DNA of 12,391 bases. Origin: a virus. Its lineage: Duplodnaviria > Heunggongvirae > Uroviricota > Caudoviricetes. Made by a program: the position numbers and the translations under genes. The stretch lies in IMG/VR virus record IMGVR_UViG_2698536312_000012; one strand, 5' to 3'. Below, in pieces: positions 7,469 to 12,362 of this stretch. The notes beneath the pieces were generated by a model, which did not search any database, was not told the origin of the DNA, and saw only the letters and a program-made list of their open reading frames with translations. Numbering within the stretch: position 1 is the stretch's first letter; every line of letters begins with the position of its first letter.

Positions 7469-7533
7469 AATAGCACTGTTATTTTTAAAAGTAAATAGTG
7501 ATGCTATTTCAAAGTGATTAGCAATCTTATTAG
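7469..7533. promoter_or_regulatory. Divergent operator/promoter region with three related operator sites
   Basis: aATAGCactgTTATTt (7469-7484), aaATAGtgatgCTATTt (7493-7509), aTTAGCaatcTTATT (7518-7532); about 24-26 bp spacing; leftward promoter candidate TTTACT-17-TATTAA overlaps the sites. Confidence 0.55.
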
Positions 7534-7543
7534 AATTGGATGT

Positions 7544-8044
7544 ATGAAAAGAAAATCATTGTCAGACACCGACCTCAACGCCGCCAGAAGACTGAAAGAA
7601 ATCTGGATGGCAAAGAAATCTCAGTTGGGATTGACTCAGGAACGTGCGGCGGAAATTATGGGGTTTTCAACACAAGGGGCGGTAAGTCACTACCTAAATG
7701 GTCAAACCCCACTAAACCTTGAGGCTGTTCTAAAGTTTGCTGGCTTACTGAAAGTTCCCCCTGAGTCAATCAGGCCAGACATGGTAGATTTGCTGCAAAT
7801 TGCAAGGATGTATTGTCGAGAACCACAGCAAGATAACATAGTCGCATTACCAGCAGACACAGAACAAACAGAGGATGAACTACCGTTTGCCGTAGAGCCG
7901 ATGGAACGAGATTTAATCCATACGTTCAGAGCTTTTCCGAAAGAAGATCAAGAACACATGCTTCAGGAGATGAAAGATAAAAAAGAATCAATGGATCGTA
8001 CGGTTGCGCGGTGGTTAGCTGCACAAAAAGGCCGTCGCGCCTAA
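7544..8044 (+). CDS. paaR2: HTH (XRE-family) repressor, PaaR2-like regulator at the cI position
   Basis: HTH LTQERAAEIMGFSTQGAVSHYLNG; 166 aa from ATG 7544 (ORF track uses GTG 7514); first gene of a three-gene operon with antitoxin and ParE toxin; divergent from the Cro-like gene. Confidence 0.7.
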   Translation: MKRKSLSDTDLNAARRLKEIWMAKKSQLGLTQERAAEIMGFSTQGAVSHYLNGQTPLNLEAVLKFAGLLKVPPESIRPDMVDLLQIARMYCREPQQDNIVALPADTEQTEDELPFAVEPMERDLIHTFRAFPKEDQEHMLQEMKDKKESMDRTVARWLAAQKGRRA

Positions 8045-8063: not shown

Positions 8064-8258
8064 ATGAGTACAGTCCTTTCCCCAATGGTTTCAGAATTTG
8101 AGACAGTTGAGCAAGAAAATAGTTACAACGAATGGCTGCGGGCCAAAGTAGCAGCAAGCCTCGCGGATCCCCGCCCGGCGATTCCGCATGATGAGGTAAT
8201 GGCGGAAATGGAACAAATTATTGCCCAAATTGCTGCTGCAACTCACAGAGGTGAATAA
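8064..8258 (+). CDS. paaA2: Small antitoxin (PaaA2-like) of the ParE toxin
   Basis: 64 aa; AGGAGA SD 9 nt upstream; stop overlaps the toxin start (TAATG); acidic, helix-prone sequence typical of antitoxins. Confidence 0.75.
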   Translation: MSTVLSPMVSEFETVEQENSYNEWLRAKVAASLADPRPAIPHDEVMAEMEQIIAQIAAATHRGE

Positions 8259-8548
8259 TGTTACCCGTTTTATGGCTACCATCTGCTCGTGATGATTTGC
8301 GCCAGATCGTAGCCTACATAGCTAAAGAAAATCCCGCGGCAGCACGCAGAATGAAAATTCGAATTGAAACATCCGTTTTGCCGCTCACAGAGCATCCTTA
8401 CCTGTATCCTCCAAGCGAGCGAGTTCTTGGTCTTCGTGAAATTGTAACTCATCCTAACTACATCATCCTTTACCGAGTAACAGCATCAAGCATAGAAGTA
8501 GTAAATATTGTGCATTCTCGAAGACAGTATCCAGGCAAAAACAGTTAA
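8258..8548 (+). CDS. parE2: ParE/RelE-superfamily toxin (ParE2-like)
   Basis: 96 aa; ParE-like segments WLPSARDDLRQIVAYIAKENPAAARRM and EVVNIVHSRRQYP; translationally coupled to the upstream antitoxin. Confidence 0.85.
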   Translation: MLPVLWLPSARDDLRQIVAYIAKENPAAARRMKIRIETSVLPLTEHPYLYPPSERVLGLREIVTHPNYIILYRVTASSIEVVNIVHSRRQYPGKNS

Positions 8549-8603: not shown

Positions 8604-8647
8604 AATAGCGATGCTATTTACATCAAAAAATAATGATGCTATTTTTT
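8604..8647. promoter_or_regulatory. Second operator cluster (two sites) with candidate rightward promoter for the ydfA-dicF-dicB operon
   Basis: aATAGCgatgCTATTt (8604-8619) and aATAAtgatgCTATTt (8630-8645), same ATAG-N5-CTAT motif as at 7469-7533; TTTACA-17-TATTTT overlaps the second site. Confidence 0.5.
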
Positions 8648-8824
8648 CAGGCGTCAACCCACCCCGCCCCACAGAATGCAGGGCAATACTTCGAGTTACC
8701 AGACAGTGGTCAGGGGTTAAGTAGCCAGCCCGAGGCGTAAGAACATGACGGCAGGGTTCAATCTTTAACTATGCAGCAGGTTTTTTGTTCCGCCACCCCG
8801 GCGTTAAGGGGAAATGAGGTCAGC

Positions 8825-8977
8825 ATGGATACTATCGATCTTGGCAACAACGAATCTCTGGTGTGCGGCGTGTTCCCTAACCAGGATGGAACGTTTACCG
8901 CCATGACGTATACCAAAAGCAAAACGTTTAAAACCGAATCTGGCGCGCGTTGCTGGTTAGCCAGAAACACTGACTGA
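8825..8977 (+). CDS. ydfA: YdfA-like small protein (Qin-type dicB operon, first gene)
   Basis: ATG 8825 with GAGGT SD 5 nt upstream; 50 aa (MDTIDLGNNESLVCGVFPNQDGTFTAMTYTKSK...); the ORF track 5' extension from 8771 lacks an RBS. Confidence 0.6.
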   Translation: MDTIDLGNNESLVCGVFPNQDGTFTAMTYTKSKTFKTESGARCWLARNTD

Positions 8978-8988
8978 TGAGGCTGACG

Positions 8989-9354
8989 ATGGAATTTAAA
9001 GATTTACCGTCTGATGTACAGAAAACAGCAGCTCATACATTGCATTCTGTGCTGCGAGAAATCGGGAAAGATATTGCAAGCGAGCCAGCAAAAGATCTGG
9101 CCCGGAAAATCAAGACCGCTTTCGTTGAGCTTTATAATGTTGGCACTGACTCTGAAACTGTCGAGACCAAGACCGTAAGTTCACCAATATTCTCACTTGA
9201 GCCAAGCGTATTATCAGGTGAAATATGCACCGAGATTTCCAGCGAACTGCTTCCGGTAATACGAGAAGCAATTCGCCGTCGCGGTTTGGATGGAAGTTAT
9301 GATCATGACGTTCTGCAAGTTCTCAGGACAATGGTGACTTCACTGGGGATTTGA
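8989..9354 (+). CDS. Hypothetical protein (Qin ydfB/ydfC-region equivalent)
   Basis: ATG 8989 with GAGG SD; 121 aa; follows the ydfA-like gene by 12 nt; alternative start ATG 8977. Confidence 0.55.
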   Translation: MEFKDLPSDVQKTAAHTLHSVLREIGKDIASEPAKDLARKIKTAFVELYNVGTDSETVETKTVSSPIFSLEPSVLSGEICTEISSELLPVIREAIRRRGLDGSYDHDVLQVLRTMVTSLGI

Positions 9355-9523
9355 TCCCTGCGTCCTCTAAGCTTTTGATATAGCGGTCCTCCAAGAAGCG
9401 GTAAATTTTGTCGAAATCATCTTTTCCCTCTGGTTTATTCAGAGGATTACAGGACCCGTAAGTAGCGGCATACATTTCAACCGTTTTATCAAAAATATAA
9501 GAGACAAATTCTTCTTTAGTCAT
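9323..9523 (-). CDS. Candidate small protein (66 aa) convergent with and overlapping the upstream plus-strand gene
   Basis: ATG 9523 preceded by AAGGAAATCTAT (good SD); protein-like composition (MTKEEFVSYIFDKTVEMYAATYG...); overlaps 9323-9354 of the plus-strand gene, so it remains uncertain. Confidence 0.3.
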   Translation of the reverse strand: MTKEEFVSYIFDKTVEMYAATYGSCNPLNKPEGKDDFDKIYRFLEDRYIKSLEDAGIKSPVKSPLS

Positions 9524-9708
9524 ATAGATTTCCTTCTTGGTTATTCGGGATAAGAAGGATACCACCTCGCCTGACGTGGTTAAAAGCAGGCACACAACGC
9601 GAAATGACGCGGCGGTAAGTATGGCGGAGTTATTCCTTCCCCGTTGAGGACACCGGGTTGTCAGGTTGACCATACGCTTAAGTGACAACCACGCCACAAC
9701 ACTCCATG

Positions 9709-9764
9709 TTGATTGGTACCTTTGGCGGCATCAGTTTCATTGCTGGCTGATGTCCGCCCTTTTT
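9709..9764 (+). ncRNA. dicF: DicF-like small RNA with intrinsic terminator
   Basis: tttggcggcatcagtttcattgctggctgatgtccgccctttttaaagtgaattttgtgatg closely resembles my recollection of K-12 DicF and its 3' flank; hairpin GGCGGCATCAG / CTGATGtCCGCC followed by a T-run; located between the ydfA-like gene and dicB as in Qin. Confidence 0.7.
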
Positions 9765-10060
9765 AAAGTGAATTTTGTGATGCGGTGAATGCGGCTCAGC
9801 GCACGCGGCACAGTTAAAAAGCGATTAGTTCCCCCGTATCGGGTGGTTATGGGTTTCCCTGTATCCGGCGTTAATTGTTAACTGGTTAACGTCACCTGGA
9901 GGCACCAGGCACCGCATCAACAAAGTTCACTTCGGTGATGAAAGGAAAGAGAAAATGTTGAATGTAGCTATTGAAAACCAGAACGGGTGGAATTATAGTG
10001 CACCTGCACCTTATAAAACGGGTGCCGGGCGTGGAAACCCGAACGTTACTCGAGCGCATA

Positions 10061-10082
10061 GCCGCGCTGAAGCGGTTTTTTT
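10061..10082 (+). terminator. Candidate intrinsic terminator or attenuator hairpin in the Rha leader
   Basis: agCCGCgctgaaGCGG followed by seven T; additional flanking complementarity cgcata / tatgcg; short stem, so weak. Confidence 0.3.
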
Positions 10083-10251
10083 ATGCGTAATGCACAGCTC
10101 CATTCAAATTATGGTGGGATGTGCAGGGCAGTCGCAAGACTGGCCGGGTTCTCGAGTGACCGGTATTTCCACCCCTGTACGTCACACCACCCTTATGGTC
10201 GTGGAAAACCTCGGTGGTGAGTTAATTAACTTATCACTCGAGGATGCCATC

Positions 10252-10809
10252 ATGGCTACTATCCCTGCCCTTTCTCACCCTGACGTAACCATCGAAAATG
10301 GTCGCGCTGTCACTACGTCTATTGCGATCGCAGAGTTCTTTGGCAAGCGTCACGACAATGTGTTACGTGCCATCGCAAATACTGAATGCTCACCTGAATT
10401 TAACGCCCTCAATTTTGAGGACGTCACCTACACTGACGCCAAAGGCGAAAAACGCCCGATGTACCAAATCACCAAAAACGGCTTCGTTTTCCTGGTGATG
10501 GGATTCACTGGCAAAAAAGCCGCTGCATTTAAAGAAGCCTACATTGCTGAGTTCGATCGCATGGAGGCCGAACTGCGCCAGAATAACACCCCACCCACTG
10601 ACAAAATAATTCCAGGCGATGGCCGCACCCTGGTTGTTCACTTCGACGAACGCGGCAACATCAGATTCACCGAAACCGTTCCTGATGGCGCACGGGTCTG
10701 TACCATGGAGACTTTCCGGTTTTATCTGGAAGAACAGGGATGGACTCTTGTTAACCGGGGCGCAATTAAAAATATGACTGTAGAGCAATTACTCAAAATT
10801 CATTGTTGA
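10252..10809 (+). CDS. rha: Rha-family phage regulatory protein
   Basis: Rha-like segment AIAEFFGKRHDNVLRAIAN...MYQITKNGFVFLVMGFTGKKAAAFKEAYIAEFDRME; ATG 10252 with AGGA SD 7 nt upstream puts the domain near the N-terminus. The same frame is open back to an ATG at 9955 with a strong SD (AGGAAAGAG), so a 284-aa form is possible. Confidence 0.7.
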   Translation: MATIPALSHPDVTIENGRAVTTSIAIAEFFGKRHDNVLRAIANTECSPEFNALNFEDVTYTDAKGEKRPMYQITKNGFVFLVMGFTGKKAAAFKEAYIAEFDRMEAELRQNNTPPTDKIIPGDGRTLVVHFDERGNIRFTETVPDGARVCTMETFRFYLEEQGWTLVNRGAIKNMTVEQLLKIHC

Positions 10810-10819
10810 GGACGCGATA

Positions 10820-11008
10820 ATGGAAACGTTATTACCAAACGTTAATACGACTGAAGGTTGTTTTGAAATTGGTGTCACTATCAGTAACCCTGTATTTACT
10901 GAAGATGCCATTAACAAGAGAAAACACGAACGGGAGCTATTAAATAAAATATGCATTGTTTCAATGCTGGCTCGTTTGCGTCTGATGCAAAAAGGATGCT
11001 GGCGATGA
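10820..11008 (+). CDS. dicB: DicB cell-division inhibitor
   Basis: 62 aa (METLLPNVNTTEGCFEIGVTISNPVFTEDAINKRK...CIVSMLARLRLM) matching my recollection of DicB; GAGGA SD 7 nt upstream; stop overlaps the next start (ATGA). Confidence 0.8.
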   Translation: METLLPNVNTTEGCFEIGVTISNPVFTEDAINKRKHERELLNKICIVSMLARLRLMQKGCWR

Positions 11009-11196
11009 ATACAGCATTTGCACTCGTTCTGACCGTTATTCTTAATACGGGCGAACCAGCTGAACTGGTTACCGGAGTATACAACTCCATGAAAGAATGC
11101 GTGGCTGCTGCAGCTGAACAGAAAATTCCCGGTAACTGTTATCCGGTTGATAAAATCATTCACCAGGATAATAAAGAAGTCCCGGCAGGTCTTTAA
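11005..11196 (+). CDS. ydfD: YdfD-like small lysis-associated protein
   Basis: 63 aa with N-terminal hydrophobic segment (MNTAFALVLTVILNTGEP...) and conserved KIPGNCYPVDKIIHQDN; AAGGA SD 8 nt upstream; ATGA overlap with dicB. Confidence 0.75.
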   Translation: MNTAFALVLTVILNTGEPAELVTGVYNSMKECVAAAAEQKIPGNCYPVDKIIHQDNKEVPAGL

Positions 11197-11300
11197 AGCA
11201 GCCACGTAATAAATATCCGGTTTCATTTTTATATGCCAGCAATGGCAGGGATTTGTTCACCCTTAAATCTGTAATGAGGTTAAAACAAAATGAGTNNAAA

Positions 11301-12362
11301 ATGAGTAAAGTCTTTATTTGCGCCGCCATTCCGGACGAAAAGGCAACAAAAGAAGAAGGCGCTAAACCTGTAGCCACTGCCATTGAAGCCGGCGACGAAC
11401 GCCGCGCCCGCGCAAAATTTCACTGGCAATTCCTGGAACATTATCCGGCTGCTCAGGACTGCGCTTATAAATTTATTGTCTGCGAGGATAAACCTGGTAT
11501 ACCCCGCCCTGCCCTCGATTCCTGGGATGCTGAATATATGCAGGAAAACCGCTGGGATGAGGAGTCTGCTTCCTTTGTCCCGGTTGAGACTGAATCCGAA
11601 CCGATGAACGTCACTTTTGACAAGCTGGCCCCTGAAGTACAGAACGCTGTCATGGTTAAGTTCGACACATGTGAAAACATCACCGTTGATATGGTGATTA
11701 GCGCGCAGGAACTGTTGCAGGAAGACATGGCAACATTCGACGGACATATCGTTGAAGCGTTGATGAAAATGCCAGAAGTTAACGCCATGTGTCCGGAGAT
11801 TAAACTGCATGCCATCGGGTGGATTAAGCATAAATGTAAGCCTGGTGCAAAATGGCCAGAAATTCAGGCAGAGATGCGCATCTGGAAAAAATGTCGCGAA
11901 GGTGAACGCAAGGAAACCGGAAAATACACGTCTGTTGTTGATCTCGCCCGTGCCAGAGCCAATCAACAGCACACTGAAAATTCAACAGGAAAAATCAGCC
12001 CGGCCATTGCTGCCATTCATCGCGAATACAAGCAGACATGGAAAACACTGGATGACGAACTGGCCTACGCTCTCTGGCCTGGTGATGTGGATGCCGGAAA
12101 CATTGACGGCAGCATCCATCGCTGGGCAAAAAATGAAGTTATCGACAACGACCGCGAAGACTGGAAGCGTATCTCGGCATCAATGCGCAAACAGCCTGAT
12201 GCCCTTCGCTACGACCGCCAGACTATTTTTGGCCTTGTCCGTGAACGTCCGATCGACATTCACAAAGACCCTGTGGCACTGAACAAATACATTACTGAAT
12301 ACCTGACTACAAAGGGCGTGTTTGAAGATGAAGGAACAAATCAGAGCGCAACTGATACTTGA
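11301..12362 (+). CDS. Hypothetical 353-aa phage protein (YdfE-like, intact form)
   Basis: Long ORF with protein-like composition; start ATG 11301 (MSKVFICAAIPDEK) preferred; the upstream in-frame ATGs (11253, 11274) lack an RBS and the stretch contains two N bases (11296-11297). Confidence 0.65.
   Translation: MSKVFICAAIPDEKATKEEGAKPVATAIEAGDERRARAKFHWQFLEHYPAAQDCAYKFIVCEDKPGIPRPALDSWDAEYMQENRWDEESASFVPVETESEPMNVTFDKLAPEVQNAVMVKFDTCENITVDMVISAQELLQEDMATFDGHIVEALMKMPEVNAMCPEIKLHAIGWIKHKCKPGAKWPEIQAEMRIWKKCREGERKETGKYTSVVDLARARANQQHTENSTGKISPAIAAIHREYKQTWKTLDDELAYALWPGDVDAGNIDGSIHRWAKNEVIDNDREDWKRISASMRKQPDALRYDRQTIFGLVRERPIDIHKDPVALNKYITEYLTTKGVFEDEGTNQSATDT

Follow-up and report, generated by a model that had tools for sequence, protein, structure and literature searches.

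The element at positions 9709-9764 of the DNA analysed here raises the question of whether it is a working DicF RNA and, if so, whether it acts on the same messages as the DicF of Escherichia coli K-12. DicF, a textbook example of a small RNA from a prophage, is known to arrest cell division, to control metabolism and to activate virulence in EHEC. The K-12 form, which is encoded in the Qin cryptic prophage (RF00039), is a 53-nt, Hfq-dependent RNA that represses ftsZ, xylR, pykA and manX. Its 3' region acts on ftsZ and its 5' end on xylR; the RNA also pairs with the ribosome-binding site of pykA, and all of these actions require Hfq (PMC5069750). Mutations in the 3' pairing region abolish or weaken the repression of ftsZ (PMC5069750). 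The RNA is made by termination together with processing by RNase E and RNase III (PMC9438474, PMC10448788). The published comparative analysis of DicF was confined to copies with over 99% identity to K-12 (PMC5069750), and our full-text literature search, outside of which the study on the four EHEC copies falls, returned no paper on DicF variants.

The window, i.e. the whole stretch of 12,391 nucleotides that was analysed, corresponds by its Pfam content and gene layout to the early region of a Qin/Rac-like lambdoid prophage. The minus strand carries replication and YdaT-like genes, which are followed by a cro-like and cI/DicA-like helix-turn-helix pair. A helix-turn-helix regulator (7514-8044) and a PaaA2-type antitoxin (8064-8258) with its ParE toxin (8258-8548) sit between these immunity genes and the ydfA-like gene. 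The features around the element are as follows, class B being the core type found in the window.

8617-8645, plus strand: candidate sigma-70 promoter upstream of the ydfA-like gene (TTTACA-17-TATTTT, extended TG), seen in the consensus scan only
8771-8977, plus strand: ydfA-like gene (DUF1391), upstream synteny marker (Pfam PF07151, E = 3e-28)
8977-9354: unassigned open reading frame
9323-9524, minus strand: 66-codon open reading frame (MTKEEFVSYIFDK...), no Pfam match
9709-9723, plus strand: putative single-stranded 5' arm UUGAUUGGUACCUUU, which aligns with the K-12 DicF arm minus 8 nt
9724-9758, plus strand: DicF-family hairpin with class B core (fold; Rfam DicF, 38.8 bits, E = 4.7e-7)
9759-9764, plus strand: C and U5 tract, identical to K-12 (terminator scan, alignment)
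9765-9924, plus strand: structured leader resembling Rfam STnc100, with closing helix GAUGCGGUG/CACCGCAUC (31.6 bits, below the gathering score of 47)
10006-10082: isrK RNA (61 bits, above the Rfam gathering score)
10107-10194: C4 antisense RNA (71 bits, above the Rfam gathering score)
ending at 10809: Rha-family gene
10820-11008, plus strand: dicB (cell-division inhibitor), downstream synteny marker (Pfam PF05358, E = 3e-38)
11005-11196, plus strand: ydfD-like gene (DUF1482; Pfam PF07358), its start placed after the 4-nt overlap with dicB in K-12
11235-11245, plus strand: candidate site GCCAGCAAUGG in the spacer between ydfD and the exonuclease gene, complementary to the class B loop region by ten Watson-Crick pairs and one G-U pair

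This order is that of K-12, ydfA-ydfB-ydfC-dicF-dicB-ydfD, with an extra cassette before dicB, and the ydfD-like gene is followed by the start of a recE-like exonuclease. Two ambiguous bases (NN, at about 11295-11296) adjoin the likely start codons of the exonuclease (ATG at 11289 or 11301). The element occupies the position of DicF in a dicBF-type operon, after a ydfA(BC)-like gene and before dicB-ydfD; dicB lies about 1.1 kb from it in the window because of the inserted isrK-C4-Rha cassette. For the larger stretch 8700-11300, no match better than 93% was obtained in complete E. coli genomes, and the window is therefore a mosaic absent from these genomes.

The sequence of 9709-9764 is ttgattggtacctttGGCGGcatcagtttcattgctggctgatgtCCGCCcttttt. 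It is predicted to fold into a single hairpin (9724-9758), in which GGCGGCAUCAGUU pairs with GGCUGAUG(U)CCGCC to form a 13-bp stem with one bulged U at 9753 and an 8-nt loop, UCAUUGCU, at 9737-9744. The energy of this hairpin is -21.0 kcal/mol (z = -3.6), and equally good folds were obtained in one of 200 shuffles. The hairpin is followed by a C and five U residues (9759-9764), so that the GGCGG...CCGCC hairpin and U tract of DicF are both present, and a terminator scan also picked the 9709-9764 element. As in an intrinsic terminator, the G+C-rich stem-loop directly precedes the U run on the transcribed strand, and this 3' portion has the appearance of a terminator as well as of a 3' end capable of Hfq binding. 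As the U run is only five residues long, as in K-12, partial read-through would be expected. An open reading frame overlapping the hairpin (9666-9788, 40 codons, TTG start) was considered and set aside, with no evidence in its support.

With regard to the relationship with K-12, the annotated K-12 dicF (L003:2883-2935) was used as the alignment reference. The flanks are almost identical, on the upstream side over about 55 nt (9649-9700) and on the downstream side over more than 60 nt (9759-9830), and the motifs TTTGGCGG and CCGCCCTTTTT are unchanged. The 33 aligned columns between these two motifs contain seven substitutions and two single-base indels (73% identity to K-12), and six of the substitutions as well as both indels fall within 9738-9753. 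The changes in the 3' half of the core (C to A, C to G and the loss of one G), combined with a U to C change at 9729, turn the imperfect K-12 stem UAUCAG/CUG-CUCUG into the perfect stem CAUCAG/CUGAUG, which accounts for the more stable fold of the window allele (-21.0 vs -15.9 kcal/mol in K-12). From the 5' arm, 8 nt that are present in K-12 (the UUUCUGGUG region) are missing, and the sequence there is UUGAUUGGUACC. Since this arm is shorter by 8 nt and not conserved, the 5' boundary at 9709 is only an analogy. The sequence found at the 5' end of the K-12 RNA (AAU/UUUC), where it is processed, is absent from the window, and a defined short RNA from the window is thus not assured.

No match to the Rfam DicF model (RF00039) was found in the window at the gathering score (48 bits). 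When 9500-9960 (461 nt) was searched under relaxed conditions, a full-length match was obtained at 9711-9759, which lies below this score (38.8 vs 48 bits, E = 4.7e-7). The homology is settled by the direct alignment with K-12, and the element is clearly a DicF homologue despite its sub-threshold score. The DicF-like identity proposed in the preliminary description is thereby borne out by the K-12-like flanks, the expected gene order and the sub-threshold match (E = 4.7e-7). The absence of an Rfam hit, which had been named there as the result that would speak against this identity, was found at the gathering score, and the 38.8-bit match was found below it. The internal segment that was said to differ from K-12 does so, with six substitutions and both indels in 9738-9753. 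The GGCGG stem, the terminator and the downstream flank described as conserved are indeed identical in frame and flank, but the 5' arm is changed and lacks 8 nt. Likewise, the divergence is central and 3', as described, but the core is homologous to that of K-12 and is no unrelated swap.

In order to place this allele, 228 copies framed by TTTGGCGG and CCGCCCTTTTTAAAGTGAA were assembled from two pattern scans of IMG/VR (loci L004-L227) and from reference loci; as the second scan was restricted to non-K-12 cores, the pooled class counts are not frequencies. The cores of the 228 copies fall into six discrete classes without intermediates. Class A is the K-12 type and class B that of the window, and the other four are C, D, E and F. 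About 80% of the copies from the first scan, which had no such restriction, belonged to class A and about 11% to class B. The exact core of the window is present in 34 of the 228 copies and close variants of it in 23 more. All six classes have the same AUC-N-GUUU block and outer stem. When 18 distinct alleles are compared across classes, 87% of the stem cells are paired, and compensatory change is seen at one stem pair (CG, UA, GC). Only class A passes the Rfam threshold (75 bits); class B scores 34-45, F 44.9, D 43.5 and E 36.4 bits, and C gives no match. Alleles like class B are therefore missed by threshold-based searches.

The class B hairpin is the most stable (-21.0 vs -15.9 to -18.8 kcal/mol in the other classes), and that of class A is the weakest of the six (-15.9 vs -17.3 to -21.0 kcal/mol). 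Class A is also the only one of the six with the anti-Shine-Dalgarno CUCCG in its loop, and a CAUC.G ... CUGAUG(U) stem is common to classes B, D, E and F. The weakest hairpin, the sole CUCCG and the stem shared by four of the five other classes suggest that the ftsZ-targeting form may be derived.

The surroundings of the six classes are similar. In all six classes a ydfA-like gene was seen upstream; it is present in half of the class D loci and in most of those of classes A, B, C and F. The dicB start follows DicF by about 215-230 nt in classes A-E, or by about 1,090 nt where the Rha cassette is present, and class F has no dicB nearby. In a genome collection with one genome per species, the exact flanks were found only in E. 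coli and E. albertii. As for the 5' arms, that of K-12 was joined to no cores other than A and D, the B core is found with at least eight different arms, and the C core is almost always joined to one arm that some B copies have as well. The combinations of the B core with at least eight arms and of the K-12 arm with both A and D indicate that arm and core reassort. The class D core CAUCUGUUUGCCCAUGAACUGAUGU is found with a K-12-type arm upstream of dicB in E. coli O157:H7 strain 2149 (NZ_CP017436.1; L232:1498-1552), at a place where no RNA is annotated, and a class D copy is also present in E. albertii. EHEC reportedly carries four dicF copies, and the class D core in O157:H7 implies that these may differ in core.

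Within class B, 40 different haplotypes are 98% identical in the core, a figure with some circularity, since the search pattern or the class definition fixed 24 of the 36 core positions; 11 of the 12 free core positions are invariant. The identity is 68% in the 5' arm, 66% in the preceding 85 nt and 82% in the following 87 nt. Of 5,426 complete E. coli genomes, about 140 contain a B-like 62-mer, and two records have the exact sequence; there is no annotated RNA feature under any of the 60 B-like matches listed. The strains E. coli C5 (NZ_CP010122), P393-F10 (NZ_CP076274) and SE11 (NC_011415) carry this core. The B core was found in no sequenced phage of the phage collection, where the best match, covering about 90% of a 321-nt query, was 82% identical.

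Pairing with the known targets was evaluated with a home-made score, which adds the duplex energy in 26-nt windows to the cost of opening the small RNA, and was compared with shuffles. Unrestricted duplex folding was discarded, as it gave unrealistic duplexes over the whole length. For the K-12 allele, the published sites were recovered in xylR (nt 4-16 with +10..+21, P = 0.03) and in pykA (nt 25-43 with -19..+1, 0 of 60 shuffles). The ftsZ site was weak (nt 31-53 with -29..-7, hybrid -22.9, P = 0.10), and that of manX was not recovered by this score. The window allele gave nothing above the shuffled background on the four genes ftsZ, xylR, pykA and manX (P = 0.33, 0.38, 0.97 and 0.35 for the four). 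The 3' complementarity to ftsZ that marks DicF was thus not found in silico in the window, where the -22.9 duplex of K-12 has no counterpart, and the same holds in silico for the 5' complementarity to xylR (and pykA). The core of the window has neither CUCCG nor the CUGCUCUG stretch, which pair with ftsZ and pykA in K-12.

When the ribosome-binding region of ftsZ (-18..+6) was considered alone, class B reached -9.4 kcal/mol (P = 0.19) and K-12 -12.9 kcal/mol (P = 0.04). On the same region, class E reached -12.8 kcal/mol (P = 0.015), and classes C, D and F remained at background. The CAU(C)AGUUUC of class B is complementary to GAAACU-AUG of ftsZ, yet it lies inside the 13-bp stem. The validated K-12/ftsZ pair ranks only 223rd among the 16,658 windows of a 50-kb K-12 segment, which means that the score has low specificity and that such a ranking cannot decide anything. 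The pairing results show the loss of the known pairings and say nothing of new targets. The shifted target range suggested earlier fits these results, in that none of ftsZ, xylR, pykA and manX gives the window allele a score above shuffled background. The element is diverged, as was supposed; it is, however, no isolated drift variant but a recurrent allele class, one of six.

Targets inside the prophage were searched for as well. Loci of each class were scanned for core complementarity over 3 kb upstream and 3 kb downstream of DicF, and nothing that varied with the class was found. Class-specific operon targets were rejected, as the best matches came from the G+C-rich stem arms or from exonuclease sequence conserved in all classes. 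The GCCAGCAAUGG site gives a hybrid of -19.3 and a total of -11.2 kcal/mol with the class B loop region, which is the second best in about 5 kb. It belongs to a small hairpin, UGCCA-GCAA-UGGCA (11234-11247), about 45-55 nt upstream of the exonuclease start, and the position of this hairpin is conserved in loci of every DicF class. Two more 10-mers, inside the exonuclease gene, match the B loop in other loci. The B-loop sites GAAACTGATG, GCCAGCAATG and ATCAGCCAGC amount to up to four per locus (P < 2e-4 in a shuffle test), with one site in the window (P = 0.085). This enrichment was rejected as evidence, because the sites occur whatever the DicF class and words complementary to loop B are 2.6-3.3 times over-represented in E. 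coli DNA. As a class B target, the GCCAGCAAUGG site is a weak lead.

The leader downstream of the element (9765-9924) folds as a closed multi-branch structure (-55.4 kcal/mol, z = -2.5). It is more conserved than DicF and near-identical to K-12 in the alignment, and the portion 9781-9916 is matched at 75-79% in the P1-like phages P7 and D6. It runs into the dicB start in K-12 and into the isrK-C4-Rha cassette in the window. The closing helix GAUGCGGUG/CACCGCAUC starts about 15-20 nt beyond the U tract, which probably corresponds to the 3' end expected for the 72-nt K-12 DicF species generated by RNase III. The cassette between this leader and dicB (9955-10809) is P1 immI-like. A promoter-like site at 9971-9999 is positioned to start isrK, and a single 284-codon open reading frame spans the whole 9955-10809 stretch. 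Sorted by DicF class, the cassette was found in 5 of 76 class A, 11 of 37 class B, 2 of 28 class C and 1 of 18 class D loci, and in both class E loci (2/2).

The reading that we consider the most likely, with a probability of roughly 55%, is that the window carries a functional DicF-family RNA allele, class B, with altered specificity. Transcription, processing, Hfq binding and any activity in trans of class B would follow by analogy with K-12. Transcription would occur within the early operon, starting upstream of the ydfA-like gene; the 3' end would form at the element's own GGCGG...CCGCC hairpin and U tract, and an endonucleolytic cut upstream would release the short RNA. As both pairing regions are altered and the hairpin is tighter, ftsZ, xylR and pykA are most likely not repressed in the manner of K-12. 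Class B would instead use its conserved 8-nt loop and upper stem to act on a different set of RNAs, and its hairpin may also be a stronger terminator ahead of the downstream genes.

Several observations weigh against this functional reading. The consensus scan found no sigma-70-like promoter directly upstream of the hairpin, the nearest plus-strand candidate being at 8617-8645. The minus-strand open reading frame 9323-9524, which is convergent with the upstream genes, intervenes between these and DicF, and an operon transcript reaching DicF would therefore be antisense to it; among class B loci only 4 of 37 contain this frame, and among class C loci 1 of 28. The K-12 5' processing-site sequence is missing. 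Hfq-dependent small RNAs usually have their seed in the 5' arm, and within class B this arm is not conserved; the conserved nucleotides are mostly in the 13-bp stem, which leaves only the eight loop bases free. Nor was a convincing target found.

Several of these points speak at the same time for a purely cis-acting element, i.e. a terminator or attenuator between the ydfA-like genes and the leader, cassette and dicB, the class differences then being differences in terminator strength. The shape is that of a typical terminator, the class B hairpin is the most stable of the six, the stem pairs are mostly invariant, and a 5' arm that varies within class B and the lack of a found target are what such an element would show. 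Nevertheless, conservation of the loop is not needed for termination alone, but in 57 copies with very different flanks the loop and upper stem hardly vary, and the cores form discrete classes without intermediates. Furthermore, the U5 tract is the same as in K-12, where read-through occurs and where the element is a proven Hfq-dependent regulator (PMC9438474, PMC5069750). We therefore regard an action in cis only as less likely than the functional reading, but as the next most likely one.

A functional equivalence with K-12 DicF would require the CAU(C)AGUUUC of class B to block the translation of ftsZ through GAAACU-AUG, so that division would still be inhibited. The AUC-N-GUUU block is invariant in the six classes, class B matches the ftsZ start codon and spacer in nine Watson-Crick pairs interrupted by one bulge, and the partner division inhibitor dicB is kept downstream. 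The hybrid of -9.4 kcal/mol, however, is not above shuffles (P = 0.19) and is smaller than the -21 kcal/mol of the hairpin that sequesters most of the nucleotides concerned, and no outstanding site is seen near the ftsZ start when accessibility is included. Moreover, CUCCG and the stretch pairing further upstream are gone, and mutations of the 3' region in K-12 abolish or weaken the repression of ftsZ (PMC5069750). This makes a retained action on ftsZ quite improbable. That the element is a degenerating, functionless DicF copy in a defective prophage is disfavoured and most improbable: it scores below the Rfam gathering score and stands in a mosaic region that no complete E. coli genome matches closely over its full length, but its changes improve the hairpin, its core recurs in dozens of prophage contexts and about 140 complete genomes, and the neighbouring genes are intact.

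Beyond the preferred reading of a functional class B allele, a broader picture can be drawn, which we put forward as a conjecture with the odds clearly against it. The DicF locus would be a polymorphic cassette of two modules, arm and core, that reassort, with at least six core classes having different targets. The K-12 form would be derived, and class B would act on other RNAs, possibly on the recE-like message via the hairpin that contains GCCAGCAAUGG in its 5' UTR (11197-11310). If the classes differ in their targets, the presence of dicF does not predict that ftsZ, xylR or pykA is regulated, and strains with several copies, such as O157:H7, may carry non-redundant regulators. The classes would also provide defined natural seed variants for studying how a horizontally spread small RNA changes its targets.

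Compared with known systems, class B is a variant of a well-known small RNA and not a new kind of element, and natural variation of a seed is in itself unsurprising. It shares with the DicF of the K-12 Qin prophage the slot in the operon type, near-identical flanks, the TTTGGCGG ... CCGCCCTTTTT frame, the hairpin with its U5 tract, the AUC-N-GUUU block and the structured leader downstream. In contrast to the K-12 RNA, it has no anti-Shine-Dalgarno CUCCG, and its 5' arm is 8 nt shorter and has no xylR seed; the K-12-type copy reaches 75 bits in the Rfam DicF model, compared with 38.8 for the window. Classes C, D, E and F have the frame and the downstream leader in common with B, whereas the loop sequences are mutually unrelated. 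A further parallel is provided by SroC and CpxQ, small RNAs from the inside or the end of operons that arise by early termination and RNase E cutting (reviewed in PMC9438474). As proposed here for class B, a terminator hairpin inside an operon gives the 3' end and processing gives the 5' end. SroC and CpxQ, however, have conserved single-stranded seeds, whereas in class B it is the hairpin loop and stem that are conserved and the arm that varies.
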